Of a stretch of DNA of 64,000 nucleotides, positions 2,514 to 56,600 are shown in pieces. Origin of the DNA: Candidatus Altimarinota bacterium. Its GTDB lineage: Bacteria > Patescibacteriota > Gracilibacteria > UBA1369 > GCA-2718715. How positions within the stretch are numbered: the stretch's first letter is position 1; every line of letters starts with the position of its first letter. The DNA lies in NCBI GenBank assembly GCA_041242255.1, contig JBESAV010000001.1, forward strand, positions 288,001 to 352,000, read 5' to 3'. The notes under the pieces were generated by a model. That model was not told the DNA's origin. It searched no databases and saw nothing but the letters and a program-made list of their open reading frames with translations. Made by a program: the position numbers and the translations under genes.

Positions 2514-2521
2514 ACCCTCAG

Positions 2522-2549
2522 ACCCTCCTCTCGGAGGGTTTTTTCTTTT
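2522..2549 (+). terminator. rho-independent terminator
   Basis: Hairpin ACCCTCC-TCTC-GGAGGGT followed by a T-tract. Confidence 0.8.
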
Positions 2550-2593
2550 AAAATTCCAAAATTAAAATATAATCAGCGCAAAAACAATTTTTT

Positions 2594-6017: not shown

Positions 6018-6045
6018 CCCGCACAATTACCAAAGCCAATCAAAT

Positions 6046-34504: not shown

Positions 34505-35600
34505 TCAATTCTCCACCAGTTTAGCTGAGCTAAGTCTTGCTTACGTAGACCCAAGTCAGAAGTCAAAAGCCTTCCAATGGCTAACCCCAGCCCCATCTTT
34601 CTTAGATGAAACTAAATCAAAAGAGATAATTTCGGAACTACCAGACCAACTTCAGACTCAACTTTTGAGTAATCAAGACCTCATAAATTTTTTCAGAGAT
34701 GATGTTAGAGCCTTCAAACTCTACACTGAAATGCTCCCATCCAATCAGATCCTTTCTGATCAAGATCTAGATGATCACATTACTATTGAGGAGTTTAACC
34801 AGTTCTTTAAAGAAAACTACATTTCTACAGAAGCTTATAAATTACCTCCAAAAAAACTTAAAGAATATCAACCAACCGATCCGAATGGTGAGTCCCAAAC
34901 TTGGGAAAGTTATCTAAGCAAACAAGCCCAACTCCAAGAGTCTTCTCAAAGCACTCAGGTTAAACCAAACTTCAGCTTAAAATATTTTTATACAAACCTT
35001 TTACCATCAAGCAGAATAGAATTTTTAAATGAGAAGCTAAATCCCCAAGAACAAACTTTCCAAACAAACAGTTTTTCGCCATCTCTTCAAGCTAACCTAT
35101 CAGAGTTACCAGAATTAAACACTTTGTCAGAACAACCTAGTCCTCAATTCTCAATAATAAAACAGCCAGCCAGTACTCAGGCTACAACAAACTACTCCAT
35201 CAAGGCCAATCAACCACAATCTAATCTAGAAGTCTCAAAGGAGACAATTTCAAAGGATTTAAATATAACTCAAGACATTGATGTTGGTTTTTCGCAAGCG
35301 CAAGTTCCCATGGTAGAAACTCTCGAACTTCAAAATCAAATAGCTATTGAAAATCAGTCTCAACTTAATAATCTTTCACAATCTAAAGAAACAGCTCAAC
35401 AGAGCCAACAAGCTGGGCCTCAAAATATACAAGACCCCTCAAAAAACAAAATCATCCTACAAAATGCATTAAACCAATCACAAAGCCCACAAAATAGACA
35501 AAAAGGCATAAATTATGCTAAAATAATAGGATATTCATCAGCTGGACTACTAACAACCGGTAGTAGCGCCCTAGCAATATTTAACACCTTATTTGGATGA
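34497..35600 (+). CDS. hypothetical Gln/Ser-rich protein with C-terminal membrane anchor
   Basis: 367 aa ORF ending IIGYSSAGLLTTGSSALAIFNTLFG; overlaps both neighbours. Confidence 0.72.
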   Translation: MNNQFSTSLAELSLAYVDPSQKSKAFQWLTPAPSFLDETKSKEIISELPDQLQTQLLSNQDLINFFRDDVRAFKLYTEMLPSNQILSDQDLDDHITIEEFNQFFKENYISTEAYKLPPKKLKEYQPTDPNGESQTWESYLSKQAQLQESSQSTQVKPNFSLKYFYTNLLPSSRIEFLNEKLNPQEQTFQTNSFSPSLQANLSELPELNTLSEQPSPQFSIIKQPASTQATTNYSIKANQPQSNLEVSKETISKDLNITQDIDVGFSQAQVPMVETLELQNQIAIENQSQLNNLSQSKETAQQSQQAGPQNIQDPSKNKIILQNALNQSQSPQNRQKGINYAKIIGYSSAGLLTTGSSALAIFNTLFG

Positions 35601-37549
35601 GACAAATGTTAAAGAAATTAATCAGCGCAGAAAGTATCAAGATTATTACTTTTCTTGGGTGTGCAATCTTTACTATTTGTTTCACACAAATTGACACAAA
35701 CCACACAGCTTTCGCTCAAAATCAAAATCAAACACAAACTCAGGATGCAAGCAATCAAACTCCAACCGGTGCATCAGTTGATACCGCAACAGCTATTCAA
35801 AATCAAAATTCAATCCTAGCTACATATGACGAAACCCTTCAGTCGGTTTCATCTCTGCTTACTTTTGTTGTAAGAGCTTTCAATTATCTGTTGTGGCCAA
35901 TCCTATTTTTGATAGGTGGTCTCATGGATAACTCCCTGATTTTTGGCCCTGGTGTCGAAGATAGGCTTTACCTTATTTGGAGCCAAATCCGTAACCTAAT
36001 CAACCTTCTCTTTGCTGTAGTTCTGATCGGAGTAGCTATATACAACGTCCTTGGATTAAGCAAAGACGGAAATTACAGCCTTAAAACATTTTTACCAAGC
36101 ATGGTAGTGACTCTTGTTTTAGTAAACTTCTCTTTCTTTGGAGTAAGACTAGCTCTAGATGCTGCTAATGTAGCGACCACAGCCGTATTTGCTTTACCAA
36201 ATGCTGTTGAGCAACAGTTTAGTCCAGAAAGACGACAAACCATTGAAGAAGGGCTTTGTAATAACGAAGCCATCAAAGACATCCAGGATGCTACCAACTC
36301 AACCAACGCCGCTAATCTAACGGAGGCTACTACCAGAATTTGTAATGGAACAATTTTTTCAGAAAACGGTCTAGCTCAGTTCCAATCATTAGATAAAAAC
36401 AACATGGCATTAGTCATGGCAATTTCGTTTAACCGTGTTGCCGATATCCTAGAGCCAAGCCAACTCACGATTTCAAATCCAAGCCTAATTAACCTAGCAA
36501 TAAATCTTTTAATAGTAATCTTGCTGCAAATTGCATACATTTCTGGATTCTTTGCACTCTTCGCAGTACTTGTAGCCCGAGTTATTGCTATGTGGATTGT
36601 TACAATTGCCTCTCCACTTCTAGTCCTAAAGATTGGAATGAGCAAAGCTAACATCCCAGGTATGAGCTTCCTAGATTCAATCGACTTAGAGAAAATGTTC
36701 GTAAAGCATGCAACAGCCCCAATCAAGATCGGTTTAGCCATGAGTGTAGGGTATATGATGCTAGATGTATTCCAAAGTGTTGGATCTCCAAGCTTATACT
36801 TCCCATTAGGTGACGATTTTTCTAACGTATTCTCAGGTGTAAGCAGCATTAACGAGCTTTTCGTAGCTGCGGTTGCTATTGCCATCGTTTGGAAAGTCAG
36901 CTTTGACGCAGCCGATGATACCTTTGCAAGTTCAATCACAAACAAATATAGAAGCTGGGCCCAAGGCCTAGGTCTCCAAGTTAGAGACTTACTAATACAA
37001 AGAACCCCAATTATACCTCAAGCCAGTAGTAAAGAAGGTGGTGGTAAAGCTTTATCTTTAGGGCAAATTGGTAAGGCTCCAAGCAAACTAATAAGTGATG
37101 CTGGTGAAAAATTTGATAAAGTTACAGGTAACAGCAAAGCAAATTCAATCACAGCTAGAAATCTACAAAGTCAGCCTGGTAGAGTTTTAACTGATGCCGA
37201 CTCAAGTAAAATTACTAACCTAAGCAAAAAAGAGACAAGAATTCTGGCAAATGGTATAATGGCTTCAGACGATCCTGCATATAAGAATGCTTTTGATTCA
37301 GCCAATAAAGCCCAAATTACTAGAGGTCTAGAGCAAATCCGTCGAAGAGAAGTCCTTCAGAAAAATGACTATAATGGACTAGATGCACTTATAAAAGAGA
37401 TTAAAGAAAGCAAAGAGGAAGATATGAGTAACTCTCAAGCTTTAGAACGAGCACGAGAATTCTTAAGGAAAGATAGTGAAAAACCTGTCTATAGAAAAGC
37501 TGATTACGATAAGGATTACAAGCGTATAAATTCAGACGATAATGAATAA
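35597..37549 (+). CDS. polytopic membrane protein, VirB6/TrbL-like (CPR type)
   Basis: Signal peptide ending AFA, IWSQIRNLINLLF, LVLVNFSFF and RVIAMWIVTIASPL; many TM segments and a soluble C-terminal tail. Confidence 0.6.
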   Translation: MRQMLKKLISAESIKIITFLGCAIFTICFTQIDTNHTAFAQNQNQTQTQDASNQTPTGASVDTATAIQNQNSILATYDETLQSVSSLLTFVVRAFNYLLWPILFLIGGLMDNSLIFGPGVEDRLYLIWSQIRNLINLLFAVVLIGVAIYNVLGLSKDGNYSLKTFLPSMVVTLVLVNFSFFGVRLALDAANVATTAVFALPNAVEQQFSPERRQTIEEGLCNNEAIKDIQDATNSTNAANLTEATTRICNGTIFSENGLAQFQSLDKNNMALVMAISFNRVADILEPSQLTISNPSLINLAINLLIVILLQIAYISGFFALFAVLVARVIAMWIVTIASPLLVLKIGMSKANIPGMSFLDSIDLEKMFVKHATAPIKIGLAMSVGYMMLDVFQSVGSPSLYFPLGDDFSNVFSGVSSINELFVAAVAIAIVWKVSFDAADDTFASSITNKYRSWAQGLGLQVRDLLIQRTPIIPQASSKEGGGKALSLGQIGKAPSKLISDAGEKFDKVTGNSKANSITARNLQSQPGRVLTDADSSKITNLSKKETRILANGIMASDDPAYKNAFDSANKAQITRGLEQIRRREVLQKNDYNGLDALIKEIKESKEEDMSNSQALERAREFLRKDSEKPVYRKADYDKDYKRINSDDNE

Positions 37550-40500
37550 TACCAACAACTTAAATCCACGGGAAAACCCAAACACTCCAACAGGCCTGGA
37601 AGAGCAAAGCGACCCCTCTCAGACCTTAGAGCTACTTCAGAACTCGACCAGTGAAAATATTGAAGGTCTTTTAGATGATCCAGATGGCCTACAAACCTTA
37701 AATATTCAGTCAGAAAAACTCAAAACAGACATAGAAGAGTTAAATGCATCCATCAATCCAATCTCACAAAAAGTTGAACAGGAATTCTCACAAAATTTCC
37801 CAGATCTAAATCAAGACCAACTCAACTGGATCCAAATCTACTTCCTTAAATTTAAAGATGCAAACAAGATCAAAAACAACATTATTCAAACCAAAGCTTT
37901 TCCTGAAATAGATGAAAATCTTCTAGAGGAAACCATCCAGAATCTTTTAGACGACGAGGATATAAAAACTTTGCCCGAACTTTACACAAAACTTACACAA
38001 AAAGAAAAAGAGATCCAAGACGCCATAAGCTCACTAAACCAAGGTATTGAAGATTTAAAGACTCTTGATTACTTAGTCAAAAAGTTCACTGAAGAAACTG
38101 GAATCCATTTCAATAACAACCTAAAAGCTTATTGTACAGTAAAAACAATTAATGCAGAGGGAGAAACTGAAGACCTTACCATGACCGTCATTCAGTCAAA
38201 ACTAGTCCAAAACCAAGCAGTATTCAAAGTAAAGTATGTTGATCCTATAACAGTAGATGAAGTAGAAAAAGTTTTTACTTCAGAACAACTTAAAAATTTA
38301 CTTTTCCACGGACAAGCCCTCAATATGGAGATAAACAGTCCTAAAGACATCAATCATTATCTAGATCTAGACAGGTTAGGATTAAATATCACTAAAAATT
38401 CATTAGACTACGTTAATTCAGACAACCAAGTCTCTCGAATACAAGTAGTCCAAAAATTCAAACAGAAAATTGAGCTTTCTGAAGAAGTTTTTATCAACTC
38501 AGAGAAAAAATCCACTCTAACTCTTGCAGAGTTCCTAAAGTGGGCCACTCTCCACAAGGCTATGCCAACTTTAAACCATGACCAATTACAAGAGGCAACA
38601 TCAAAACTTCCAGATTTAATTTCAAGCAAAACATCATATCCTAGAGAAGATATCTCAAACTACAATATTCAGGTAGGATCAAGTTTCAACTCACCTATAG
38701 ATCAACTTCCTATTACAATCACAAGCCTAGACTCTGATCAAATTACTTACAATTATGGTCCAGACCTACAACTAAAAGCTACAAATTCAATGTTCTTAAG
38801 AACTTTAATGAAAGGCTTATACATACCAGTTCTACCTGCACTAGCTCAAGAAGATAGTTCTGACTCAAACGACACAAATGAGGAGCGAGATGGGTCTCTT
38901 CCACCAAACCAAGACCTTCCTCAAGATAATGATCAGCCACCTGAAACAGAAGATCAATCAAGTGAATCATCTAAGAAAAATGTTCAGCAATACGAGTTCG
39001 GATCTCCACCAAATCCACTTGATATATCGACTTGGACAGGATTAATTGGTAAGGTCTTAACTTTCAATGGTCACATTACATATCTTTCTTATACTGACTG
39101 GTCAGAGACTTTAATTCCAAAAATTGTAGATAATATCCGTACTTCTCTCAAAAATAAAAGCCAGCTGAAAATGGGTAAAAACTTCAAAAATCTACCTCTA
39201 ATCGGTGATGATATGGCTGATATTGAATCAGCTGCAAAGCGTGAACAAGTCGAAGCAGCCAAGTCCGTACTAGATCGAATAGGTAATTGGAGAAAAGTAC
39301 AAGATATCATATGTTCCACCGATGATATATTTCAATTTATAGCTGCCACCAACTTTCTAAAGGACAAAGGTTATCTACCAACTTACAATGAACGTTATCT
39401 TCAAAACGTAAATAGACTAGCTGGAAACCTAGGTATGCCAACCTTTGATATACCAGATGATATTCAAGCAAATAGGTCCATTATTGATAAATATCTAATT
39501 GATTTTTACGATAGTCTTCTCGATCCAGGTGATGGGATAAGAATGATCAATAGCAACAAATCCAATGAGGAAAGTTCCATCCAAGAGTACAAACGTCAGT
39601 CTAGTGAGATCTTTTCTCAAAACCCAAACTGGGGGTTAACCAAGCTTCACAGTATCTTAACCGATTACCGTGCCGGAAAAGAAATCGATCCACATGAGTA
39701 CAAAGGTTATCTACTTGGTGCCTATGACTCAGGGGAGGTAGGTGAAGTTGAACTACTGACCTACTTCGTCCTAGGTAATACCATAAAAGATTCCAACGGA
39801 GACACCTTAGTGAAAGGTTACGAAGCTCTTGTCGCAAGCCTAAAAAAAGAATTCATCGGATTCAACCTTCTGCTAGACCAAAACTTAGAAGAATTATCTA
39901 GTTTTTTCGATAAAAACATTTTAGTTTCAGGGGCAATTCCTGAGCCTACAGGAGGCGGTTCTGCCAGTACTCTAGAGCAAAGATTTGGAGCCAAGAAAGC
40001 TGAAATGATCACAAATTACGTATACTTTACCAACCTCAGCGTAAAAGTTACCAAAAAACAAAATGAGTACCTTAAAGATAGAGCTCTCAAGAAAGAACAC
40101 GCCGGTTACAGCATTTTCTCTCAAGATTTCTCTAGCCTCTACAAGGATTTTGCCTTCATACCACCAACTTCTTCATCAGCACTTACTACAGAACAAGTAG
40201 TACAAAGTTTTAAAACGTTCCCTCAAGTTCTAAAAGCCTATTCAGATGTAGCTAAAGCAGGTGAGTCAGAGTACATAAACGATCCAAGCAAATTTGCGGG
40301 TTATAAAGGTCGTATAAAAAACTCCCTTATGTCCTATATCTTAATCGAAGGAGCTTATACAGACCGGGTACAACCAAGGAAAGGCTCTAAAGCAGGTGGG
40401 GACATTAATGACCAAGAAAAGAAAGGTACAAAATCCAAAAGAGAACAATCCCGCAAATTTATCACAGAGGTCCTAGTAGACTGCCTTGGTCCATCTCAGG

Positions 40501-40646
40501 AAGACTCAATCAACCAGCTTTTCAAAGCTTATAGTAAAGAAAACGACAAACACCATGAAACCTTCTACCAAGATATAACATCTATCTTCCAGCAGATCGA
40601 TCCAGATAAGTTATTCGAAAGCCTCAAGAGACACAGTATAGGCTAG
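37542..40646 (+). CDS. large hypothetical soluble protein
   Basis: 1034 aa ORF with a coiled-coil N-terminus and an acidic/Pro linker; no recognised motif. Confidence 0.78.
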   Translation: MNNTNNLNPRENPNTPTGLEEQSDPSQTLELLQNSTSENIEGLLDDPDGLQTLNIQSEKLKTDIEELNASINPISQKVEQEFSQNFPDLNQDQLNWIQIYFLKFKDANKIKNNIIQTKAFPEIDENLLEETIQNLLDDEDIKTLPELYTKLTQKEKEIQDAISSLNQGIEDLKTLDYLVKKFTEETGIHFNNNLKAYCTVKTINAEGETEDLTMTVIQSKLVQNQAVFKVKYVDPITVDEVEKVFTSEQLKNLLFHGQALNMEINSPKDINHYLDLDRLGLNITKNSLDYVNSDNQVSRIQVVQKFKQKIELSEEVFINSEKKSTLTLAEFLKWATLHKAMPTLNHDQLQEATSKLPDLISSKTSYPREDISNYNIQVGSSFNSPIDQLPITITSLDSDQITYNYGPDLQLKATNSMFLRTLMKGLYIPVLPALAQEDSSDSNDTNEERDGSLPPNQDLPQDNDQPPETEDQSSESSKKNVQQYEFGSPPNPLDISTWTGLIGKVLTFNGHITYLSYTDWSETLIPKIVDNIRTSLKNKSQLKMGKNFKNLPLIGDDMADIESAAKREQVEAAKSVLDRIGNWRKVQDIICSTDDIFQFIAATNFLKDKGYLPTYNERYLQNVNRLAGNLGMPTFDIPDDIQANRSIIDKYLIDFYDSLLDPGDGIRMINSNKSNEESSIQEYKRQSSEIFSQNPNWGLTKLHSILTDYRAGKEIDPHEYKGYLLGAYDSGEVGEVELLTYFVLGNTIKDSNGDTLVKGYEALVASLKKEFIGFNLLLDQNLEELSSFFDKNILVSGAIPEPTGGGSASTLEQRFGAKKAEMITNYVYFTNLSVKVTKKQNEYLKDRALKKEHAGYSIFSQDFSSLYKDFAFIPPTSSSALTTEQVVQSFKTFPQVLKAYSDVAKAGESEYINDPSKFAGYKGRIKNSLMSYILIEGAYTDRVQPRKGSKAGGDINDQEKKGTKSKREQSRKFITEVLVDCLGPSQEDSINQLFKAYSKENDKHHETFYQDITSIFQQIDPDKLFESLKRHSIG

Positions 40647-43778: not shown

Positions 43779-44654
43779 GTGTTCCAATCAATACAAGAAT
43801 TCTTTCTGATCAATCAAGAAGCTTTAAAGCTAACAATTTTCTCGAGCTTATTTAGTTTAGTCCCAATTCTAATCTGGGCCACCATTTTCCTATATAAGCA
43901 CAACGAGAAAAGAGAACTCGTAGTGAGAACCTTTGCTTTCGGGGGGCTTATGGTACTCCCTTTTATGTTATACAGAAAACTATGGGATTATTTTCCATTC
44001 TTGAATCTAGACAGTTTAGTTGCCTCATACTCTTCTGAGCCTATTCAGATTCTAAATTTCAGCCTACAAATATCTCTTGCCACAGCAGTTTTATTTGCCA
44101 GTTTAGGGTGCATAGAAGAATTCCTTAAGCACAAAGTAGCCAGTTCAATCGATCACTCAGAGATAAACTGTATCGATGATGCAATTGAATTCAGTATAAT
44201 AGCCGCATTAGGGTTTTCATTTGCAGAAAACACATTCTACTTCATTGAAGTCTGGAAATCCTTTGGTCCTTCCATGTTATATAAAGTAGTTATCTTTAGG
44301 TCCCTTTTTGCAACTTTCGCCCACATCCTCTTCTCAAGTATATATGGTTACCACTTCGGTTTAGCCTTATTTGCTGATCCAATACTAAAAAACCCAAAAG
44401 AACATTCGCTCTACAAGCGTTTATCCTTCTGGATTCATAATTTCTTTCACGTTAGAACCAATATCGTATTTAAGGATTTCCAGATGATATTTGGCCTAAT
44501 AATTGCCTCTTTTTCTCATGGTTTTTATAACATCCTCCTAGAGATGAAAAACACCATATTCCTTTTCCCATTCTTAGTCCTAGGTTTCTCGTATATCATG
44601 AAACTCATCTCAGACGAGAAAAACCTTAAGATTTATACAACTAACGACTCCTAA
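43779..44654 (+). CDS. prsW: PrsW family intramembrane metalloprotease
   Basis: IEEFLK, ALGFSFAEN, AHILF and HGFYN; GTG start. Confidence 0.87.
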   Translation: MFQSIQEFFLINQEALKLTIFSSLFSLVPILIWATIFLYKHNEKRELVVRTFAFGGLMVLPFMLYRKLWDYFPFLNLDSLVASYSSEPIQILNFSLQISLATAVLFASLGCIEEFLKHKVASSIDHSEINCIDDAIEFSIIAALGFSFAENTFYFIEVWKSFGPSMLYKVVIFRSLFATFAHILFSSIYGYHFGLALFADPILKNPKEHSLYKRLSFWIHNFFHVRTNIVFKDFQMIFGLIIASFSHGFYNILLEMKNTIFLFPFLVLGFSYIMKLISDEKNLKIYTTNDS

Positions 44655-45930
44655 TTGAAGTGATGTTTGTTGATATATCAGTACAAACAGCATCACAGTA
44701 CTGAACGTTGTCTACAAAACACTCTCCACTTGCCGTAAATCTAACTACCACAGTTTCACTTGGTCTATCTTCTAAAACAGAAGGTATACTCATTACACCA
44801 GCGTTATACTTGTTCAGGTCAAGTGCACCATAACGGTAGAAGTTCGTAATTCGTGGGTGAGAATAATCAATCTCCATTCCACTAAGAATTTCCACTGCAA
44901 AATCAGTCATATCGGGCCATCTAGATTCAAGTACAACAGCTTTTTCAAGATTTCCAGAACCATCAACACCATCAAATCTAATCTGAGTTCTGTTTGGATC
45001 TTCTAACCTATATCTAGTTGCCCCATATTCTAAGCTCAAATCTGGTCGTGATATCATTCCTCCTTGATCAATATGAATTCTAATGTTTGTACTAGCAAAT
45101 CCTGATGTAGATGGTGGATTTAGTACATAATTAATCTCACTGAACAAATAATTAGCTTTGGTTGTCATTGCAGGTGTACATTGTATCCCCATATCAACAG
45201 GCATGTCAGGAGCCATATCCATTCCGGCATCCATTCCCATATCAGCAGGCATATCAGGATCCATGTCCATTCCGGCACCCATTTCCATATCAGCAGGCAT
45301 ATCAGGATCCATGTCCATTCCGGCATCCATTCCCATGTCAGCAGGCATGTCAGGATCCATGTCCATTCCGGCATCCATTCCCATGTCAGCAGGTATATCA
45401 GGATCCATATCCATTCCGGCATCCATTCCCATGTCAGCAGGCATGTCAGGATCCATGTCCATTCCGGCATCCATTCCCATGTCAATAGGCATGTCAATCA
45501 TTGCATTCTCGCAAAATCTTCCCCCCTCCATTTTATACTGTTCTTCAAGTTCTTTAATTTGACCTTCAGGACATTGTTCAACAATACACATTGGAGTTCC
45601 CATATCACTCGTATACTGAGGAGCACGTTCATCAGGGCAAACATCTACCATGTCTGAACAAAAAGAACCTTCTCCCGCCTTACGAAACTCTTCATCTTGC
45701 TCTTCAAATCCATCTTTTTCACATAAAACTCTCAAACATAAGTTCTTTCCATCCTCTACTTTAAACGGAGTTCTATCATCAGGGCACTCTCCCAAAACAT
45801 TATCAAAAGCTTTTGAATCATATTCACATGAAGCAAGAGCTCCAGTAAGACTCATAAGCAGTATTAAGGCGTTTTTTTGTGGAAATTCAAATTTATCTCT
45901 AAATCTATCAATTCTTTCAAAATTATTCAT
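44641..45930 (-). CDS. Cys-rich lipoprotein with DMGMDAG tandem-repeat linker (paralog A)
   Basis: Lipobox ALASC, Cys-rich N-domain, six 16-aa repeats and a C-terminal domain shared with 45923..46921. Confidence 0.82.
   Translation of the reverse strand: MNNFERIDRFRDKFEFPQKNALILLMSLTGALASCEYDSKAFDNVLGECPDDRTPFKVEDGKNLCLRVLCEKDGFEEQDEEFRKAGEGSFCSDMVDVCPDERAPQYTSDMGTPMCIVEQCPEGQIKELEEQYKMEGGRFCENAMIDMPIDMGMDAGMDMDPDMPADMGMDAGMDMDPDIPADMGMDAGMDMDPDMPADMGMDAGMDMDPDMPADMEMGAGMDMDPDMPADMGMDAGMDMAPDMPVDMGIQCTPAMTTKANYLFSEINYVLNPPSTSGFASTNIRIHIDQGGMISRPDLSLEYGATRYRLEDPNRTQIRFDGVDGSGNLEKAVVLESRWPDMTDFAVEILSGMEIDYSHPRITNFYRYGALDLNKYNAGVMSIPSVLEDRPSETVVVRFTASGECFVDNVQYCDAVCTDISTNITSIRSR
45187..45483 (-). 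repeat. coding tandem repeat, 6 x 48 bp (DMGMDAGMDMDPDMPA)
   Basis: Six units read directly from 45483 to 45196, plus a partial DMG; few substitutions. Confidence 0.95.
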
Positions 45931-46921
45931 TAGTAAGAAGATTATATTGATTAGTCAGTGAATTACATAGACTCTCACAGTATTCTACTCCATCTACAAC
46001 ACATACTCCAGCAGCAGGAAATTCTATAACAGTAGATCCATTATAAGTCATACTACTTGGAATACTTTTGGTTCCTGAGTTTACAATACTTAAATCTAAA
46101 GCACCATAATTTTCAATCTCTATAACTCCAGGCATCGCTCTGTTGATAACAAAACCTTCATTCAGTTCAATAGCCACATCAGACATATCAGGCTGATTTA
46201 CAGTAATCACAGTTATAAAATCTGCATTGTTAAACCTAAGCTGAGTTCTGTCAGTTGCTAGCTTATATCTATTCGCACCTTCAATCATAAAGTCTTCCCT
46301 TACATTTCCTCCATTCGCATCTTGGTATACAACTCTAACATCAGGAGAGACATAACTATCAGTACTTGGTGGATTTAAAGCTTTGTTAATCTGGTCATTA
46401 ATTAACTGTGTTTTGCTAGTCATTTCATCTGTACACACAATAGGCATAAACATATCGATCTCCATATCAGGAGTCATATCCATTCCAGCGTCCATTCCCA
46501 TATCCATATCAGCAGGCAAATCAGGAGTCATATCCATTCCAGCATCCATTCCCATATCAATAGGCATATCAGGAGTCATATCTATTCCAGCATCCATTCC
46601 CATATCAGCAGGCATATCAGGAGCCATGTCCATTCCAGCGTCCACTCCCATATCTGGAGAGCTCCCAGTACAAACTTTATAATCATTGAAATTAGTTTCT
46701 TCACTTGGTAGACAGCTATCATCAGCTCTACAATACTCAGTACCATCTTCTTCAGTCCCATATGGTTCTACCTCTTTTTCATTACAAGGTGCTTTTTCAA
46801 ACTCAGGGTAAGCAGTATGTAAAAACAAACATGCTTGTGACTGACTTAATGCAGCTAGTAGCATTAACCTTTGCATAAAAGGGCTAACCTTTACTCCACT
46901 CATTTTTTCTAATCTATTCAT
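45923..46921 (-). CDS. putative lipoprotein with DMGMDAG tandem-repeat linker (paralog B)
   Basis: Hydrophobic leader ending SQAC, four repeats, and a C-terminal domain with LNPPST, YGALDL, SIPS and C.VD.V.YC...C as in paralog A. Confidence 0.8.
   Translation of the reverse strand: MNRLEKMSGVKVSPFMQRLMLLAALSQSQACLFLHTAYPEFEKAPCNEKEVEPYGTEEDGTEYCRADDSCLPSEETNFNDYKVCTGSSPDMGVDAGMDMAPDMPADMGMDAGIDMTPDMPIDMGMDAGMDMTPDLPADMDMGMDAGMDMTPDMEIDMFMPIVCTDEMTSKTQLINDQINKALNPPSTDSYVSPDVRVVYQDANGGNVREDFMIEGANRYKLATDRTQLRFNNADFITVITVNQPDMSDVAIELNEGFVINRAMPGVIEIENYGALDLSIVNSGTKSIPSSMTYNGSTVIEFPAAGVCVVDGVEYCESLCNSLTNQYNLLTNE
46451..46654 (-). repeat. coding tandem repeat, about 4 x 48 bp (DMGMDAGMDMTPDMPx)
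   Basis: Four units with one 6-bp (DM) insertion; same unit family as 45187-45483. Confidence 0.92.
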
Positions 46922-47003
46922 AATGAATAATTAACTTTGCCATATATTAATCGTATTTTAAGTTTTGTCAAGTGGTGGTAGATAGGTCAATTCATACAAA
47001 TAT

Positions 47004-47037
47004 AAAAAAAGACCCCATCTCAACACGGGATCTTTTT
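47004..47037 (-). terminator. rho-independent terminator of rplJL
   Basis: Imperfect GATCCC/GGGGTC hairpin with T7 on the minus strand, just after the rplL stop. Confidence 0.7.
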
Positions 47038-47059: not shown

Positions 47060-47461
47060 CTATTTAAGTTCAACAGTTGCTCCAGCTTCTTCAAGTTGTT
47101 TTTTAAGCTCTTCAGCTTCAGCAGTATCAACACCTTCTTTAACTGCTTTAGGTGCTCCATCAACAAGTTCTTTAGCCTCTTTTAGACCAAGACCAGTGAT
47201 TTCTCTTACAGCTTTAATTACTGCAATTTTTTGACCTCCAGCAGCAGCAAGAACTACGTCTTTCTTACCGCTGTCAGCAGCACCAGCGTCTCCACCAGCT
47301 GCAGGAGCAGCCATAGCTACAGGGGCAGCAGCAGATACACCGAATTCTTCTTCCATTACTTTAACTAGGTCAGCTAGTTCTAAAACGCTAAGTTTTTTAA
47401 CCGCGTCTAGGATAGATTGAGCGTCTTTACTCAATTCTGGTAATTTTTTTTCGTCAGACAT
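47060..47461 (-). CDS. rplL: 50S ribosomal protein L7/L12
   Basis: [31 protein letters not shown] and [11 protein letters not shown]. Confidence 0.98.
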
Positions 47462-47502
47462 GATTTAAAATTAATATTTTATAAAATTTATAGAAAATTA
47501 GG

Positions 47503-48027
47503 TTATTCACCTTTATCAGCAATAGCTTGAAGTGTACCAACAAACTGTCGCATTGTACCGTGTAGAACACCGTGGAATCCTGAGATTGGAGCGTTGAGAC
47601 TTCCGACAAGACTCGCGTATAGTTCTGATCTGGTAGGAGTGTTTGCATATAAAACTGCTTTTTCTCTACCAAAAGCCTTACCTTCCATGATACCACCAGT
47701 AAGTGATAGTTGTTCATGGTCTTTAGCAAGACTATGGATTTGTTGTGGTCCAGATAAACCTTCATCGTAACTAAAAACAGCAGCAATAGGTCCTTCCATC
47801 ACATCATCTGGAATTTCAGAGACACCATTCTTGTCAGCTGCAAGCTTGATCAAAGTTTTCTTAGCCACAACAAGCTCAGCACCTTCTTCTCTAAGAGCGT
47901 TTCTAACTTTAGTAACGTCTTGAACTGAAAGTCCAGAGTATTGAGTGAAAAAAACAGATTTAGCATCCCCAAACTTTTGCTCTAGTGAGGCAAGAATTTC
48001 CTTTTTTCTATCTTTTGAGATAGCCAT
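47503..48027 (-). CDS. rplJ: 50S ribosomal protein L10
   Basis: YSGLSV, VAKKTL and GPIA; immediately upstream of rplL. Confidence 0.96.
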   Translation of the reverse strand: MAISKDRKKEILASLEQKFGDAKSVFFTQYSGLSVQDVTKVRNALREEGAELVVAKKTLIKLAADKNGVSEIPDDVMEGPIAAVFSYDEGLSGPQQIHSLAKDHEQLSLTGGIMEGKAFGREKAVLYANTPTRSELYASLVGSLNAPISGFHGVLHGTMRQFVGTLQAIADKGE

Positions 48028-48273: not shown

Positions 48274-49569
48274 ATGACTGACCAAAATCTGACTCCAGAA
48301 AACAACAAGAAATCTCTGTTTAGTACCGAGAGTAAATCAGCTAATCAGGCCGATTTAAATGAGCTTGGTTTTGATTCATCGATTCAACAAGTAGAACAGG
48401 GGGCTCAACCCAAAAATCCAAAAGACTTCTTTAAGACAGACAACGATACGGTGATTAAGAACATAGTTGAAAACAAAATTAATCCCAATAAAAACAAATC
48501 ATTCACCGAAAGCAATAAAGATCTATTGGATGAATTCTCTGAAATAGATAAAAGGCTAAACCTCAAGATAGATTCCTTAGAGGTTATTCAGCAAAAAAAG
48601 AAAACCTCTAGGTTAATTTTTCTGATCTTATTAGTTTTTGCTGCTATTTCAATTACCGCAGCACTTTATTTTAATGGAGCATTCTCTGATCAAGATGTAG
48701 AAACTCCACTTGAACAAGCTCAAGCTCAGTTTTGGCAAATCAAATCTGAATTAGTCCTAAACCAAACTAAGCAAGCTTCTATTCTTATCAACCAGTTAGC
48801 ATTCCAAGCTTCAGAATTCCAAAAACTATACAATCAATCAATATCCGAGTTTGAGTCTTCAAGCAATCAAAACTCAGCTAAACAAGAGCTTCAATCTAAG
48901 CAAACTCAAATCAACCAAACTCTCACTGAGTTAAAAGATGTTTTATCAAAAGCACAGTCAAACTATGGAAGTAACGAAGAATTCCACGAAGCTTACGTAG
49001 AATATATAGCAAGCCAACTTGCCAATCTTGACCCAGAGGCAAATTCAGCAAGTCTTAGTTTACTTGAGTCAGAACAACTATTACGAGATAGCTCTAAGTT
49101 AGTTCGAAACCAAGATTTATTAGCTTCTATCAATCAAGCTAATCTTACTCAACAAACTCAAGCTGATCTTCTTGAAACTTTACGATCAATTTTTAGAACA
49201 ACCAACTTAAACTACGTGACAGACCTTGCAAACTTTACTTTAACAAGAATAGAGCTGACCAGAATTTTCTCTGAGTTATCCAAGATAGCAACCGAGTTCG
49301 ATCCTAATTTCTCACCATTCAATATTAGTGAGAATTCAATGATAAATTTCAATAACTACACAATCACCGCCAACAATACAGTAAGTGTAACTGCTGATAT
49401 TCAGACATCTGATCAAAATCTATTCTCGCTTGTAGCCAACCTTGATGATGCAATCAGTAATTCTCCACTATTTCAAAATATTTCTCGAACAACTTATTCC
49501 AAAAACCTTTCCCCAGAGGGGGAGTTCACCTCAAGCGTAAACTTAGACATTAATCTAGAAGAGCTATAA
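48274..49569 (+). CDS. PilN-like type IV pilus alignment protein (extended)
   Basis: Cytoplasmic N-terminus, single TM, long coiled-coil and a C-terminal alpha/beta domain; position before pilO/B/C. Confidence 0.55.
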   Translation: MTDQNLTPENNKKSLFSTESKSANQADLNELGFDSSIQQVEQGAQPKNPKDFFKTDNDTVIKNIVENKINPNKNKSFTESNKDLLDEFSEIDKRLNLKIDSLEVIQQKKKTSRLIFLILLVFAAISITAALYFNGAFSDQDVETPLEQAQAQFWQIKSELVLNQTKQASILINQLAFQASEFQKLYNQSISEFESSSNQNSAKQELQSKQTQINQTLTELKDVLSKAQSNYGSNEEFHEAYVEYIASQLANLDPEANSASLSLLESEQLLRDSSKLVRNQDLLASINQANLTQQTQADLLETLRSIFRTTNLNYVTDLANFTLTRIELTRIFSELSKIATEFDPNFSPFNISENSMINFNNYTITANNTVSVTADIQTSDQNLFSLVANLDDAISNSPLFQNISRTTYSKNLSPEGEFTSSVNLDINLEEL

Positions 49570-50174
49570 TGGCATTAGAAAAAGCACAAAAAGAAAGATT
49601 AGTTGCAATCATTTACACAGTTTCAGCTGTAGTACTTGGTTTAGTGGCAATTTTCATGCTGTTTTCAGCCTTTCAATCTGTCCAATCTCAAAGAAAGCAG
49701 ATTGAAGCCCTACAAGCTCAAGCTCAAACAACTCAAACAGAAATTCTCGAGCTTACCAGGCAGATTAAAACTTCAAAAGAAAGTGCGGAAGCTTTCATTC
49801 CATCTAACTTCGAAGAATTCTTCAATCCTGATACATCTAATAGTCAACTCACAAGAATGTTTGATGAATTAGAAACAAGATACCAGTCAAATGGCCAAAC
49901 TTTCTTAATAAACTCAATCAGTTATGGACAAGCCACATCTTCAGATGAGTCTCAGACTCAAGCCGTAAGAGCTAATCTATCTCTATCAACCTCTCAGGAA
50001 AATCTTTTAACATTCCTTAGGGATATCGAAAAGACTAGTCTTTCCCCTGAAGAAGCCTTTTATTACTTGGATCCTCAATCACTGAATTTTTCAAATGTAA
50101 CTGCCGATACCATTGGAGAAGAAATCAGTGTTGATCTACAAGTAGATATATTACTCAGAAAAAACAATGGATAA
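49569..50174 (+). CDS. PilO-like type IV pilus protein
   Basis: N-terminal TM, coiled-coil and NLLTFLRDIE motif; operon context. Confidence 0.6.
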   Translation: MALEKAQKERLVAIIYTVSAVVLGLVAIFMLFSAFQSVQSQRKQIEALQAQAQTTQTEILELTRQIKTSKESAEAFIPSNFEEFFNPDTSNSQLTRMFDELETRYQSNGQTFLINSISYGQATSSDESQTQAVRANLSLSTSQENLLTFLRDIEKTSLSPEEAFYYLDPQSLNFSNVTADTIGEEISVDLQVDILLRKNNG

Positions 50175-51660
50175 TCAAAACTTTAATCAGTCTCAGCAAG
50201 CTCAAAGTCCAGCTAACCCTGGGTTGACACCTCCTACACCACCTTCTCTTCAACCTACACAACCAAACCCACAGTCAGCCCAACCAAATCAACCTGATCC
50301 CCAACCTCAAATGCCTCAACCACAGCCAGTTTCTCAGCAGGCTCAAGCTCAACAATCTCCAGCCCCTAGCCAACCTCAACCACAAAAACCAATCCCAGTT
50401 CAAGATTCCCTGGAGGATAATCCTAAGTTTAATGATCTTAAAAGAGCTATTTTAAGTAACAATGTCCCACAAATAGTCCTTTTGATAATAAGTTTAGCCT
50501 TAGACCTCAGAGCATCTGATATCCACATAGAGCCACTGGAAGATATTGTTCGGATTAGATATAGAGTAGATGGAGTACTTCAAAAAATCGTTGAATACCC
50601 AATGAATGTGCATCCAGCAGTAGTTTCCAGAATTAAGATCATGTCTAGTCTTAAGATAGATGAGTCTCGTATTCCACAAGATGGACGTACCAATGTGACT
50701 ACTCAAGATGGTAGAGAGATGGATTTAAGGGTCTCAACTTTCCCAACAGTAAATACTGAAAAGATCGTGATGCGTATCCAAGATAAATCCCGTGAAATTC
50801 CACAACTAGAAAAACTAGGTATTACAGGTAATAGTCTTAAGTTCCTAAACAGAGCTCTAAAAATGCCAAATGGTATTATCCTAACGTCTGGTCCAACCGG
50901 TTCAGGTAAAACTACCACATTATATGCTTGTTTAACCAAGCTTAATAAAGTCGGAGTAAATATCCTTACAATTGAAGATCCAGTTGAGATTCAGCTTGAT
51001 GGTTTAAATCAATCTCAGGTGAAAAGTGATATTGGGTATAAGTTTTCAACCGGTCTAAGGTCGGCTTTACGTCAGGATCCAGATATCATGATGGTAGGGG
51101 AGATTCGTGATAAAGAAACTATAAACGTAGCAATCGAGTCAGCTCTTACAGGTCATTTGGTCTTCTCAACTATTCATACCAATAGTGCCGTAGAAACTCT
51201 TACTCGTATTCTAAATATGGGAGTTCCAGCTTATTTAATAGCTTCAACAGTCGATACTATCATCGCTCAAAGATTGGTCCGACTACTCGATCCAGAAACA
51301 AGAGTTGTTGATACTCCTTCAGCCGAAGTTCTAGAAGCAGCTAAGAAAGCAATCGAAACCCTTCCAGACTCAGAAAAAGCTAATTATCCAAACATTGATT
51401 TTGAAAACCCAGTTTTCTATAAACCAGACCCAAGACTTCCAGATGGAAAGGGTTATAAGGGAAGAGTTGGTCTATACGAGATAATGTCCTTTAATCAAAG
51501 ACTCAAAAACGCTGTCTTGCAAGGGAAAAACACTCTTGAAATTCAGCAAATCGCCCAGGAAGAAGGTATGGTTACTTTAGAGCAATCCGGAGTTATCAGA
51601 GCTCTAGAAGGTAAGACCTCTCTTAGTGAAGTTTACCGTGTAGCTAACCAATCTGACTGA
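50167..51660 (+). CDS. pilB: type IV pilus assembly ATPase (PilB/GspE)
   Basis: ASDIHIEP, PQDGR, GPTGSGKTTTLY, TIEDPVE, LRQDPD, GEIRD and TGHLVFSTIH. Confidence 0.93.
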   Translation: MDNQNFNQSQQAQSPANPGLTPPTPPSLQPTQPNPQSAQPNQPDPQPQMPQPQPVSQQAQAQQSPAPSQPQPQKPIPVQDSLEDNPKFNDLKRAILSNNVPQIVLLIISLALDLRASDIHIEPLEDIVRIRYRVDGVLQKIVEYPMNVHPAVVSRIKIMSSLKIDESRIPQDGRTNVTTQDGREMDLRVSTFPTVNTEKIVMRIQDKSREIPQLEKLGITGNSLKFLNRALKMPNGIILTSGPTGSGKTTTLYACLTKLNKVGVNILTIEDPVEIQLDGLNQSQVKSDIGYKFSTGLRSALRQDPDIMMVGEIRDKETINVAIESALTGHLVFSTIHTNSAVETLTRILNMGVPAYLIASTVDTIIAQRLVRLLDPETRVVDTPSAEVLEAAKKAIETLPDSEKANYPNIDFENPVFYKPDPRLPDGKGYKGRVGLYEIMSFNQRLKNAVLQGKNTLEIQQIAQEEGMVTLEQSGVIRALEGKTSLSEVYRVANQSD

Positions 51661-52931
51661 TGAAAAAAGCTAAAGATTTTAGTCTTAAAGAAGCAACCCA
51701 AAGGAACACCTTCCAAATAGAAGGTCTTTCAGACGAAAAAATTGCTAAAGCAAAAAAAGACGAGATTTTTTTAGAAATAGTCGATGACCAAGAATTAGCT
51801 GCAGGCTTTCTAAAAGACAAAGGTCGATCAGAAACTCAGAATTTTTTCCAATCAAAGTTCGGGATAGATTTAAATAAATTCCTAAAAAGAGGAATTCCGA
51901 TCAAAGATAAAAGTATTTTCTACGAACTTATTTCAACCATGCTAACCGCAGGTATATCCATTATTCAAGCTATCAAAATTTTCTCTGACCAAACAACTAA
52001 TAAATATTTCAAAAAAGTAACTCAAGAAATTGCCCAAAAATTAGAAACCGGTAAAAGTTTCTCCGAAACTTTAAATGATTATCAACATATCTTCTCAGAG
52101 TCTGAAATAGGAATGGTAAGTTCAGGAGAGGTAACTGGTAAACTAAATGAAGTCCTAAAAAGACTATCCAAGGAGCTAGAAGAGGGAGTTGAACTTAGAG
52201 CAAAGATAAGATCAGCTTTAATCTATCCGGTTATAGTTTTTGTGTTTGTTATACTTACGGTATATGCAATGTTACGGTTTGTAATACCTCAGATCAAAGA
52301 GTTATTCTCTACTACAGGCCTTGAGCTACCTGCAATCACAGAATTCTTAATTTTAGTCAGTGATATTGTCATCAATAACACATTCTTTGCTGGGGTTACC
52401 TTAGCTATCCTAGCGGCATTCATAGTTTTAACCTATTCGAATCCCAAAACCAGGTTTTATTATCATTTATTATTTTTAAAGATTCCTGTTCTCAAAGATT
52501 TCTTACATTATATAAACCAAGCAAAATTTTCTAGAAACATTTCCAACCTCCTAAACGCTGGAGTTTCAGTGATAGACTCTTTAGTGATTACCTCAAAAGG
52601 TCTATCAAACCTTGTTTACAGGCAGAGGGTATACTTAACCTCAAAAGATGTAGCTCAAGGTATAACAATATCTGAAAGTATACAGGATTCCCCACTTTTC
52701 TCTGGGCTAACCACTAATATGATTGCCATTGGAGAAAGAACCGCTCAAATAGACGATCTAGCAGCTAAAATATCCAAATACTATGATATGAAGACCAAAG
52801 AAATGGCTGAAAATTTCTCAAAACTTATCCAGCCATTTATAATACTTTTTGTAGGTACTCTAGTTGGAGTTGTAGTACTTGCCATTATGCTTCCAATGAC
52901 AGAACTTCTAAGTGGAATTGACTCACTGTAG
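51660..52931 (+). CDS. pilC: type IV pilus platform protein (PilC/GspF)
   Basis: Two T2SSF domains (GEVTGKL, IGERTAQ), ALIYP and three TM segments. Confidence 0.92.
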   Translation: MKKAKDFSLKEATQRNTFQIEGLSDEKIAKAKKDEIFLEIVDDQELAAGFLKDKGRSETQNFFQSKFGIDLNKFLKRGIPIKDKSIFYELISTMLTAGISIIQAIKIFSDQTTNKYFKKVTQEIAQKLETGKSFSETLNDYQHIFSESEIGMVSSGEVTGKLNEVLKRLSKELEEGVELRAKIRSALIYPVIVFVFVILTVYAMLRFVIPQIKELFSTTGLELPAITEFLILVSDIVINNTFFAGVTLAILAAFIVLTYSNPKTRFYYHLLFLKIPVLKDFLHYINQAKFSRNISNLLNAGVSVIDSLVITSKGLSNLVYRQRVYLTSKDVAQGITISESIQDSPLFSGLTTNMIAIGERTAQIDDLAAKISKYYDMKTKEMAENFSKLIQPFIILFVGTLVGVVVLAIMLPMTELLSGIDSL

Positions 52932-52989
52932 TGTTGCTAAAAAGCTAGAAATAGTTTATAATAATAAGATAAATAATTAACATTAATTT

Positions 52990-53490
52990 ATGAACATGCC
53001 TATCAAAAAAGGTTTCACGCTTATCGAGCTACTTATTGTAGTAGCAATCATCGGTATCCTTGCCGTTGCACTTGTACCAACAATTACAGATGCACCAGCC
53101 AGAGCAAGAGATGCAGCTAGAAAAGCTGCTGTTAACAGTATCCTTTCATCACTTGAGTCATACAACATCGACAACGGAAGATATCCAAATGGAAACTTCT
53201 GTATTGATGAAACTCTAGTAGTAGCTACTCCTTCTAGTGATGGGGAAGAGTTGGTTACTGATTACCTAAATGGAAACCCACCTTCTCAAGTAGCTCCAGC
53301 TTCTGCAACAATTTGTTCAGATGGTTCTAACTCTTACGTTAGGTACGAAGGAGATGGAACTTCATATACAGTTTACATGGAGTTAGAGAATGACGGTAAT
53401 AACAGTGTGAATTATACAGCTTCAGGGTCTAATACATTAGAGGCTTCAGGAACAGCAACGAATACTGAAGTTTTCGCAGTAGAAAGATAA
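52990..53490 (+). CDS. type IV pilin
   Basis: Class III signal KKG/FTLIELLIVVAIIGIL, ARARDAARK and a Cys pair. Confidence 0.93.
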   Translation: MNMPIKKGFTLIELLIVVAIIGILAVALVPTITDAPARARDAARKAAVNSILSSLESYNIDNGRYPNGNFCIDETLVVATPSSDGEELVTDYLNGNPPSQVAPASATICSDGSNSYVRYEGDGTSYTVYMELENDGNNSVNYTASGSNTLEASGTATNTEVFAVER

Positions 53491-53540: not shown

Positions 53541-53666
53541 AATAAATAAAACAAAATACGCTCTTCGCAAGCGGAAAGGCCTTTGATTAGACGAAAAACA
53601 CCTATTTGTATAACTAGATCTTTCCACTTTTGCTATAATATAATGATACTTAAAAATTATCACATT

Positions 53667-56600
53667 TTGTCTAAGTTCAAGTTAAAGAAAGCATTGCACG
53701 GCCTAAGCGATACATACTTCAAGAAAAGTATTATTGGTGTACTCCTTGTTGCCATGATTTTACAAGCTTTTTACTTAGATCCATTACAGGTTGGAACTAT
53801 GAATGCTAGCCTTCAGGCAACTGCTTCCATTTATTCTGATCAAGCTCCATCTAACTTAGTACTTATCCTTGTAGAGAAAGATCTTTTTGAAGATCAAGAT
53901 GATTATACCAATCAGTACACTGAAAACTATTCAGAAGTTTCAAGTTCTTCAATTCAGGAAAGAATTGAGAGATACGCCAGAGACATCCAAAGATCCAGTT
54001 ATTTTCAAGAGTCAGATCTAGACACTGAGGTTACTATCATACCAGTTAGCCAGTTTCAGGCTCCAGCTGAAATTGCTTCCTTATTGAAGCAAGCTTACCA
54101 CCAAAACCTAGATCAATTAGAAGATTCACAGCTTTCAGGGGTAGTACTTATGGGAGAAGTGCCTTTACCAGTAGTGAATAAGTCTGGAAACCTATTCACA
54201 TCCCTTTATCCATATACTGATTTTGAGGATCCTTCATTTGTATTAGATAACCAAAACCAGTACTTCATTCCAACTCAAGTAAATAACCCAATCCCTGAGG
54301 TTTGGCATGGTGTAATTAACTTAGATTCTCCCCAAGCAATTTCTGAGTACTTAGATAAAAACCACTTATACTACGAAGGAGTAGAAGATTTCCAAGACTT
54401 CGATCAAAGTATTTTTTTCTCAGAGCCAGTTCACGATGCCAGTTCTTTCAATCAAGATCTTTACTCATCCTACCTGACTTACACAAGTGTGATAGAAGAG
54501 TTCGCCTACAATAGGTTCAGCAGAAAGCTCTTGGATTTCTTAGGACAAAACTCAAGTGGTTTCGTGGCAGAGGCAATTCGAGCCGGACAATCCAACCAGT
54601 CAGATCAGATAAAAGTCCCAGATATTTTCACTAGGTCCAATATAGAGAAGTTTGTTACCCCACTGACAGATGTTTTCACTGTAGCCTTAAGAGATCAAAG
54701 AGATGCTCTTCTCTCAACTGGAAGATATCAAGATTCCCAATATAATTCAGGCTTACTAGGTATCGCCAAGCTAGATGAGCTATCTTCACTATACCTTAAA
54801 GAAGTTAATCAAATTTTAGAAAATGAGATCGATGATATTTTAGATGATATCCAGCAAGACATTAACCTAGTTCAAGGTGCCCGACTAACTCCAGTTTTAC
54901 AGTTTGAAAATCAAGACGGTGACATTGTAGACCAACAACTAGATCCAATCTACTTCGTAAATCACTCCAGACAAGGAGACCTACTTCAACTTTATCTAAA
55001 TCTGGTACCAGGTTTAGCTCAATCTACTGCAAACCTACCAACTGATGAAATCCTTGATATCTTATTCGCTAACCCGAATAGCCCACTCGGACAAGAAGAT
55101 CTTATCCAAAATGCCACTTTGAAGATTAATGGAACAAGGTTTCAAGATATAAACACTCCCGCTCAATGTAGACTTTTCAGGGGAGGAGGTACTACAAACC
55201 CACTTGATAAAACAGTTAGAACTCATAGGGGGCTAGTCATAGATCGAGACCCAGAAAGCCCACAAACAGAAGTTTGTTACAATCCATTTGATCCTGATGA
55301 TCCAGAAGAAACATGGACAAAGGTAGACAGATCTCCAGGTTTACTTAATCTAAGGGATAACGTTTACAAATGTACTACTTTTGCCGGTAGAGATCTTCAA
55401 GATTTCCATAGAATGGACGAAGTTCAGCTTGATTATCAAAGCCCATTAACAGCACAAAGCTGTAATGGAATGAGAACAACACAAGACTATCTTGACCTTT
55501 TAAAAGTTGAATACGCAAGGACAGATTCAGAAGCTGAATTAAATCAAGCTATTCAAGAACTTAATTCAATTCCAAATTACCAAGATTTAACTTTAGCCAC
55601 ATACCAAGGCCAGACAATCACACTTGGCCAATTCTTATCAATACTTCCAACTTACAGGTCAGTCCAATTAACCCAAAATCAATCATTTGATTGGCACGCT
55701 TTCAGCTCGCAGATCTTAGCCAACCCAGTTAGGAATGAATTTTCAGTAAATTTACAGAGCACTGCTAACCCTGAGCTTAGATCACTAAGGCTAGAGGTTC
55801 AGCAGTACCAAACCAGCAAAAACATACCAAGTTTAGTTAAACATGCTGACCCAACTCCAGGAATCATATCAAATGCATATGATGCTATTAATCCTGATCT
55901 CCCAATCAATGCAACCAGGTATGTAACCTTCATGGACAAAAATGGTGAATCCCAAGAACTAGTGTATCCAAATCTTTTCAAGGCAGATTCTTATGCCGAT
56001 TTCTTACAAGATGTTTCCCAGTTAGAGTCAGCTCTAACTAGGTTATCTAAAACCAACCAAGATTATACAGGCAGGCTAACTAATCTAATCTCGTTACCAC
56101 AAGATCAGTATCAATCTGATCAACTAGTGGGAGCAAACAGTGCTAAAGTAGAGTATTTCACCAATTGGCTAACATATGACCTAAATCAGAAATACGAACA
56201 AGCTCATTCTCTTATCTTATCAAAGGATAGACCTTTTACCCTAAATAATTTCTCAGACAGCTTTGAAATAACTCATTTAACAGGTAATACCACTAATTCA
56301 AATTTAGATTTCAACATCTTAGATTTTACCGACTTCGATCAAATCTTACCTCCGGAAGACTCATTAGAAGGACAACACAAAGCTCAGACCCAAGAAGAGT
56401 TAATTCAATCACAACAGTCAGCGGCTGATGATTCAATAGATTTATTTACTTATTTTACTGATTATCTTCCGTCATGGTATGAAGAGCAGCAAAGTCGAAT
56501 TTCTCAGATCATCAGTCCTGAAAAACCTGAAATATCAACTGCCGACGAACTTTTCGGATCTGAAGACGTTACTCCAGATTTAGTTCAGGTAACAGCATCT

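Follow-up and report, generated by a model that had tools for sequence, protein, structure and literature searches.

In a 64,000-nucleotide stretch of contig JBESAV010000001.1 from Candidatus Altimarinota bacterium (the whole of which is referred to here as the window), two adjacent genes, A and B, most likely encode orphan stalked lipoproteins in which a Met- and Asp-rich stalk, built of Asp-led tetrads, is maintained by selection. On balance we lean towards the view that A and B are native stalked lipoproteins of adhesin-like surface display, whose Asp-tetrad stalk is a product of convergence. Each protein runs from a leader with a Cys through a Cys-rich N-terminal part and a repeat stalk to a Cys-bounded C-terminal domain, and it is this succession of lipobox, Cys modules, repeat and Cys-bounded domain, taken together with native codon usage, that suggests display insofar as sequence features can. 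The two genes are indeed the paralogues that an initial annotation of the window had described as a same-strand tandem: their C-terminal domains (heads) are identical at 66 of 171 residues (39%) and share four invariant Cys, a 48-bp repeat is present in both, and the open reading frame (ORF) calls place them co-oriented on the minus strand with an overlap of 8 nt between the stop of A and the start of B. The identical A protein is present on four contigs, the longest of 1,000,477 nt. Coordinates are collected in Table 1.

Of all parts of the pair, the stalk is conserved best. Tandem Repeats Finder returned four rows for the window, every one of them inside A or B, and the period of 48 bp (3.9 copies in A with 88% matches, 6.4 copies in B with 93%) bears out the 16-residue Asp/Met/Gly/Pro repeat initially proposed for both proteins. 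The units are made of Asp-led tetrads, such that in A the spacing from one Asp to the next is 4 in 16 of 17 cases. Between A and B the 14-residue stalk cores are 85% identical, with 13 of 14 residues kept, as compared with 39% for the heads, and the N-domains are without detectable similarity. For the stalk units of A compared with those of B, the proportion of synonymous differences (pS) is 0.51 and that of non-synonymous differences (pN) is 0.079 over 24 unit pairs (pN/pS of approximately 0.15), against a pN of 0.445 for the head; between the majority units of the two genes, 4-5 of 6 synonymous sites differ versus 2 of 36 non-synonymous sites (Fisher p 1.8e-3 to 1.4e-4). Since the synonymous sites have diverged while the residues were kept, this codon-level comparison shows the stalk sequence, including its pattern of Asp at every fourth position, to be under purifying selection and not a free spacer. 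Units compared inside A give a weaker ratio (0.34), and the units of each gene share gene-specific codons, as is expected from repeated slippage or conversion.

Table 1. Coordinates of genes A and B, their parts and their flanking signals within the window
Feature	Position	Strand	Remarks
Gene A (P0001)	45923..46921	-	332 aa; probable stalked surface lipoprotein
A leader, residues 1-31, ends at Cys31	46829..46921	-	non-canonical lipobox; signal peptidase I site also possible
A N-domain, one acidic four-Cys segment, residues 46-84	46670..46786	-
A stalk, residues 89-158, ~4 units of 16 aa	46448..46657	-
A C-domain, residues 163-332, four Cys, orphan	45926..46435	-
Gene B (P0002)	44641..45930	-	429 aa; predicted stalked surface lipoprotein
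B leader, residues 1-35	45826..45930	-	canonical lipobox at Cys35
B N-module 1, residues 49-91, four Cys	45658..45786	-
B N-module 2, residues 98-140, four Cys	45511..45639	-
B stalk, residues 146-248, ~6.4 units of 16 aa	45187..45495	-
B C-domain, residues 251-429, orphan	44644..45180	-	predicted helix / beta-rich core / helix, low confidence
Sigma-70-type promoter candidate	46944..46971	-	23 nt upstream of gene A; 10/12 consensus
Terminator-like hairpin	47006..47037	-	13-pair stem + T tail, 3' of rplL
rplJ-rplL	47060-48027	-

Neither protein has a credible family in Pfam, NCBIfam or PHROGs, and a tblastn comparison of B with plasmid and phage sequences, with the low-complexity filter on, gave zero matches; A and B are orphans and not ordinary, widespread proteins of known function of the Candidate Phyla Radiation (CPR). 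When a profile of both C-domains was run against 1.84 billion representative sequences, nine hits were obtained at E<=0.001, comprising A, a variant of B and seven weaker short matches, of which the five inspected are long repeat proteins. A word search with the C-domain matched one protein (B's own variant) among 154 candidates, and the profile found nothing credible among the PDB sequences (best E 0.88). The AlphaFold model of the C-domain, built from two sequences, has a predicted local distance difference test score (pLDDT) of 60.8 and a predicted template modelling score (pTM) of 0.55; a fold search with this low-confidence model gave none of 48161 chains at Z>=5 (best Z 4.9, root-mean-square deviation 4.1, 98 residues aligned), and Foldseek gave zero matches at E<=0.001 in PDB and BFVD, a result which does not demonstrate a new fold. 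The shared, Cys-bounded C-domain of the initial annotation stands as described, and is still unrecognised after the structural comparison that had been suggested for it.

The leaders of the two proteins differ. Under a PROSITE-type lipoprotein pattern, B passes at Cys35 and A fails at Cys31; the lipoprotein-type leader originally claimed for each is canonical in B and non-canonical in A. By this pattern B is a signal peptidase II lipoprotein, with its lipidation and surface location predicted. In A, lipidation is probably at Cys31, which is favoured because it is unpaired and at the place equivalent to Cys35 of B: Cys31 is the odd one of nine Cys in A, as Cys35 is the odd one of thirteen in B. 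The N-domain of B consists of two tandem four-Cys modules that align with each other far better than chance (score 73, z 10.6, 0/1000 shuffles). Homology of the A segment to these modules found no support, in that 327/1000 and 409/1000 shuffles matched the respective scores, and the N-domains are divergent as had been noted. No relatives of the N-modules were found in the window, in Pfam, NCBIfam and PHROGs, or in the 33 GTDB loci described below; this search did not cover the large protein sets.

A and B look native. In each of the three parts of A and of B, synonymous third positions have a GC content of 0.13-0.25, and the codon likeness of their non-repeat parts is 0.18, the upper end of the 0.05-0.18 spanned by 18 other window genes, which confirms the AT-rich, neighbour-like codon use reported at first. 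Their net acidic charge per 100 residues (11.7 and 12.4) is similar to that of the CtpA-like, thioredoxin-like and ZnuA-like proteins of the window (12.5-16.8). Besides A and B, three lipoproteins with canonical leaders and acidic linkers are encoded at 8731-9771, 12530-13162 and 20953-21489 (+); the ZnuA-like one among them contains seven Asp-led tetrads in a His/Asp loop.

The initial annotation had also taken DMG/DAG-rich linkers as a hallmark of Myxococcota and Bradymonadia. A scan of GTDB genomes with the single pattern D-M-G-x-D-A-G-x-D-M, with counts that are raw and not relative to the number of genomes in each phylum, recovered 33 loci, compared with 0.4-3.2 expected by chance. Four of these are titled Myxococcota or Kofleriaceae (which we take to be Myxococcota), the Kofleriaceae match lying in a C-terminal tail; one (L032) is from a 54%-GC genome of unassigned lineage; 19 belong to a single actinobacterial family, unrelated to A and B, whose C-terminal tail is rich in Gly and Asp; and nine are scattered, several of them apparently off-frame. 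None of the 33 is CPR-titled, and the source genome itself is also not among them. In five loci the motif falls, by our reading, within the stalk of what looks like an exported protein (three Myxococcota, L032 and one cupredoxin-like lipoprotein of Acidimicrobiaceae), and a further context is an insertion in an enzyme. L032 holds the only exact 10-residue match, directly after a lipobox, and may be Bradymonadia-like, although four ORFs of its 8 kb gave no family match that would fix the lineage; in L025, a record titled Myxococcota, a stalk with Asp at every fourth position follows the lipobox. The resemblance is real, as L025 and L032 attest, whereas, with 19 actinobacterial tails and the Acidimicrobiaceae lipoprotein, the motif is no hallmark of Myxococcota and Bradymonadia alone. 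At the level of sequence comparison, the likeness of the stalk to Myxococcota is confined to a low-complexity segment and is common to other phyla. The folded domains of A and B have no Myxococcota homologues, in the large sequence sets for the C-domain, and among the 33 loci, the window and the family libraries for the N-modules. The occurrence of the core motif in unrelated contexts and an acidity like that of other exported window proteins are counted here in favour of a native, convergent stalk. A search for the repeat in proteins gave three matches among 4976 candidates of near length and none among 1193 longer ones, which is weak evidence, and added one lamin-tail protein with a similar tetrad stalk. 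In the literature passages retrieved, with most subscription papers outside the search, no description of the A/B repeat, of the A/B proteins or of stalks with Asp-every-fourth tetrads was found.

Several of the loci are of interest in their own right. The actinobacterial family (L001, with its match at ~4001-4030, L003, L007, L009, L010, L012-L014, L017-L019, L021-L023, L026, L029-L031 and L033) is one of widespread membrane proteins ending in Asp-led Gly-rich tetrads, and the one member scanned, L013, is without a Pfam match. L020 encodes at 2136-2819 (+) an Acidimicrobiaceae lipoprotein, cupredoxin-like by eye, with a Met/Asp-rich insert that includes the core motif. In L032 two lipoproteins lie within 8 kb (1796-4300 and 6363-7457, both -) with an Asp-rich stalk right after the lipobox, which precedes a long Cys-rich repeat region in one and an esterase domain in the other.

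One explanation of this likeness is mimicry, in which a small host-dependent bacterium copies the Asp-tetrad stalks of Myxococcota/Bradymonadia surface lipoproteins, which would be recognised by myxobacterial machinery for sorting, self-recognition or prey discrimination, so that a host or predator treats the cell as self or permits docking. Selection on the exact stalk sequence is compatible with this idea, as are the five exported-stalk loci, of which three are titled Myxococcota and one is L032 with its exact 10-mer. An Atlas search with whole B likewise placed first a cluster whose commonest phylum is Myxococcota (0.85), a lead only; with the C-domain alone, the best score (0.84, taken as noise level) fell to unnamed clusters and no Myxococcota-dominated cluster came first. 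Mimicry nonetheless needs a reader and a host, and neither is in evidence. No reader of such stalks has been described in the passages retrieved: neither the motif term nor the word 'repeat' occurs in those of 10.1101/2023.06.07.544157, and those of PMC11980579 describe no such reader. The retrieved part of the former reports that Bradymonadales carry MYXO-CTERM proteins, and makes no mention of such stalks. The CPR hosts listed in the passages of PMC12592800 are Actinobacteriota, Gamma- and Betaproteobacteria and methanogens, and two Myxococcota operational taxonomic units appear there among many that correlate with Saccharimonadales; the passages of 10.1101/2024.12.19.629468 give no host link, and across the literature passages as a whole no Myxococcota host for CPR bacteria was found. 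Furthermore, the motif also arose in Actinomycetota, and the head and N-modules are like nothing in the fetched loci. With the likeness confined to the low-complexity stalk and direct support lacking, we regard mimicry of a myxobacterial host or predator as very unlikely. Were it true, the organism would either parasitise a predatory myxobacterium or be its prey in disguise, the stalk would point to an undescribed recognition code, and these bacteria would gain a host or predator of a new class.

A related candidate, a link between the neighbouring PrsW-family protease and myxosortase-type processing, was discarded: its gene lies convergent to the pair, a C-terminal sorting segment is missing from A and B, and PrsW is mentioned in the retrieved passages of neither paper on sorting (10.1101/2023.06.07.544157, PMC11980579).

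Ancient transfer of a lipoprotein gene or stalk fragment from Myxococcota/Bradymonadia, followed by duplication and full codon amelioration, would account for the layout that the L032 and L025 proteins share with A and B (lipobox, Asp/Met stalk, Cys-rich parts), and the pair does sit downstream of rplL with a promoter of its own, as an inserted module might. However, the order of parts differs, as the Cys modules of A and B come before the stalk; apart from the seven weaker short matches, the only homologues of the C-domain in the representative set are A and the B variant; and the DNA of the two L032 motif copies is only 50-67% identical to that of A and B and uses other Gly and Ala codons. 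Given an orphan C-domain and native codons as well, a myxobacterial origin by transfer is, of the explanations considered, the one to which we assign the poorest odds.

The composition of the stalk raises a different possibility, and the main rival to display: that it serves as a Met-based sink for metals or oxidants. Met accounts for 8.7% of A and 10.0% of B and for at most 3.7% of the products of the other 32 of the 34 tabulated genes. The selection on the repeat unit would fit such a function, as would the carotenoid enzymes encoded in the same window and the cupredoxin-like lipoprotein of L020, the Met/Asp-rich insert of which holds the core motif (copper ligands by eye). There is also precedent in the Met-rich MXKDX-repeat peptides which, according to the passages retrieved from PMC8315932, act as hypochlorite sinks together with MsrPQ. 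The Met residues themselves are less supportive, as they are swapped for Val, Ile or Leu (4/50) about as often as Asp (1/40) and Gly (1/20) change; positions that tolerate Val, Ile and Leu behave as hydrophobic slots, and the look-alike stalks of P0004 and L025 have Val, Leu or Thr in those places. The pair is flanked by rplL on one side and prsW/recF on the other, with no neighbouring gene of the msr, cop or cus type, and three Msr motifs were not found in the 64-kb window. A sink would also leave the folded head and N-modules unexplained. We therefore consider this function improbable, if distinctly less so than a myxobacterial derivation.

The display reading has weaknesses of its own. The head has no sequence relatives, family or fold match pointing to a function, and the term adhesin as such derives entirely from the architecture; the leader of A is non-canonical; and a generic spacer needs neither 30% Met nor a conservation above that of the head. 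The selection test draws on six synonymous sites per unit, the units are non-independent, and if A and B exchanged units in the past, this would likewise raise their similarity. A database variant of B (P0003) is shorter by exactly two stalk units, and as units 1 and 3 of B have identical DNA, it may be an assembly collapse, indistinguishable from real variation.

Allowing for these points, it is reasonable to postulate that A and B are long-resident, co-expressed proteins built like stalked adhesins. The leader would be cleaved and the N-terminal Cys lipidated, as the sequence pattern predicts for B and as is likely for A, which would place the small, disulfide-bonded N-modules near the membrane. 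From there a strongly acidic, Pro-containing stalk of 70-100 residues, presumably held open by charge repulsion, would carry a disulfide-closed head of ~175 residues away from the cell. By textbook rise values, the stalk would measure ~22 nm in A and ~32 nm in B if fully extended in a polyproline-II-like manner, and a few nm as a random coil; it is modelled as coil with low confidence (pLDDT 41 for the full-length model of A). The head may bind a partner outside the cell, for which a host or neighbouring cell surface is the likeliest candidate, and the Asp-tetrad pattern may be selected most simply for stalk shape or cation binding. The number of units could change by slippage or unequal recombination and so tune the reach, the variant being observed and its cause conjectural. 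Independent origins of the tetrad pattern in several phyla would explain the myxobacterial look of the stalk.

The promoter first proposed for the pair (46971-46944) is a good candidate on sequence grounds, being the only site in the window, on either strand, with a perfect -35 and a matching -10. When the 84-nt spacer was shuffled 20000 times, such a strict site occurred 72 times, by a criterion picked after seeing the site, and a loose scan of the window gave seven sites against 12.0 ± 3.9 in shuffles, i.e. no excess. Terminator-like sites numbered two as opposed to 1.3 ± 1.2 in shuffles, and the hairpin after rplL is plausible as a terminator because of its position and not because of the count; it plausibly separates the A/B pair from the ribosomal operon. 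The rplJ-rplL genes are isolated, with rplK-rplA not upstream and rpoB not downstream, where the A/B pair follows rplL instead. At its 3' end, gene B shares 14 nt with the convergent gene of the prsW family.

The window has a GC content of 37% and holds no rRNA; TGA ends 6 of 34 genes, and hence the lineage is not TGA-recoded. Its GC content, its type IV pilus cluster and orphan membrane proteins, and the occurrence of the A protein on a contig of 1.0 Mb are indirect hints at a CPR genome. Elsewhere in the window, all on the plus strand, are a carotenoid-type cluster at 2594-6906 (polyprenyl synthase, phytoene-synthase-like protein, CrtI-family desaturase and UbiA-type prenyltransferase) and, at 31774-32325, an S6-S18 fusion of 183 aa with S6 at residues 1-94 and S18 at 125-182, both above cut-off; no description of such a fusion was found in the literature passages, including those from PMC9297842 and PMC6744442. 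Five co-oriented ORFs of 172-1034 aa at 32466-40646, some with membrane segments, have no convincing family match, and the window holds many orphan membrane proteins. A type IV pilus cluster at 48274-53490 comprises two ORFs without assignment, a PilB/GspE-like ATPase, a PilC/GspF-like protein and a pilin, and a giant ORF of more than 3450 aa (53583-64000) runs off the window with no Pfam match at E<=0.01 and one weak DUF11-type repeat.

Neither stalked lipoproteins nor orphan proteins are rare on bacterial surfaces, and the ordinary reading thus matters modestly. With A and B comes a head domain, so far unrecognised, as a candidate attachment factor, and it is unusual that a repeat stalk should be conserved better than the domains it joins. 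The recurrence of Asp-every-fourth tetrad stalks across several phyla is possibly the more general result, and the regular, selected 16-mer provides a convenient test peptide for the role of such stalks.

Among known systems, MrpX and BcrX, the MXKDX-repeat peptides found with MsrPQ, are comparable to A and B, going by the passages from PMC8315932, in being exported, repeat-built and rich in Met and Asp. They are short peptides in an msrPQ operon under an extracytoplasmic function (ECF) sigma factor, whereas folded domains are present in A and B, their repeat lacks Lys, and the window offers no msr neighbour. With a different repeat, no family match and rplL and prsW as neighbours, A and B do not belong to the MrpX/BcrX type.

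The exported proteins of Myxococcota type (L025, L002, L016, the unassigned L032 and P0004) share with A and B a lipobox or signal peptide, an Asp-tetrad stalk and short words; Asp-Asp gaps of 4 make up 27/32 in P0004 and 11/15 in L025. Their stalks are irregular tetrads encoded at high or medium GC, in contrast to the regular, Pro-containing 16-mer of A and B, and their folded domains (lamin-tail, immunoglobulin-like (Ig-like), Cys-rich repeats, esterase) are unrelated. Some, such as L002 by eye, end in a C-terminal sorting-like segment that A and B do not have. The abstract of PMC11980579 describes MYXO-CTERM by a C-terminal Cys motif, a transmembrane helix and an Arg cluster. Sorting of A and B by that route was dismissed, as no such NCBIfam domain is found at E<=1 and their C-termini are without a hydrophobic helix; a match to NF045523 (10.9 bits, cut-off 500) covers the stalk only.

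The staphylococcal microbial surface components recognizing adhesive matrix molecules (MSCRAMMs; SdrC, SdrD, ClfA and ClfB) have a repeat that serves as a stalk between anchor and head. The B stalk matches the Ser-Asp regions of the SdrD, SdrC, ClfB and ClfA models at E 1.4e-5 to 2.8e-3, which is compositional, and the models NF000535, NF012181, NF033609 and NF033845 score 15-23 bits on the stalk only, against cut-offs of 999-2500. With scores far under the cut-off, no Ig-like A region and no LPXTG, A and B are not MSCRAMMs. Their predicted anchor is an N-terminal lipid where that of MSCRAMMs is a C-terminal LPXTG, and their repeat is a 16-mer of Asp-led, Met-rich tetrads with no Ser; what the two have in common is a long, acidic, low-complexity repeat set between an anchor and a folded head.

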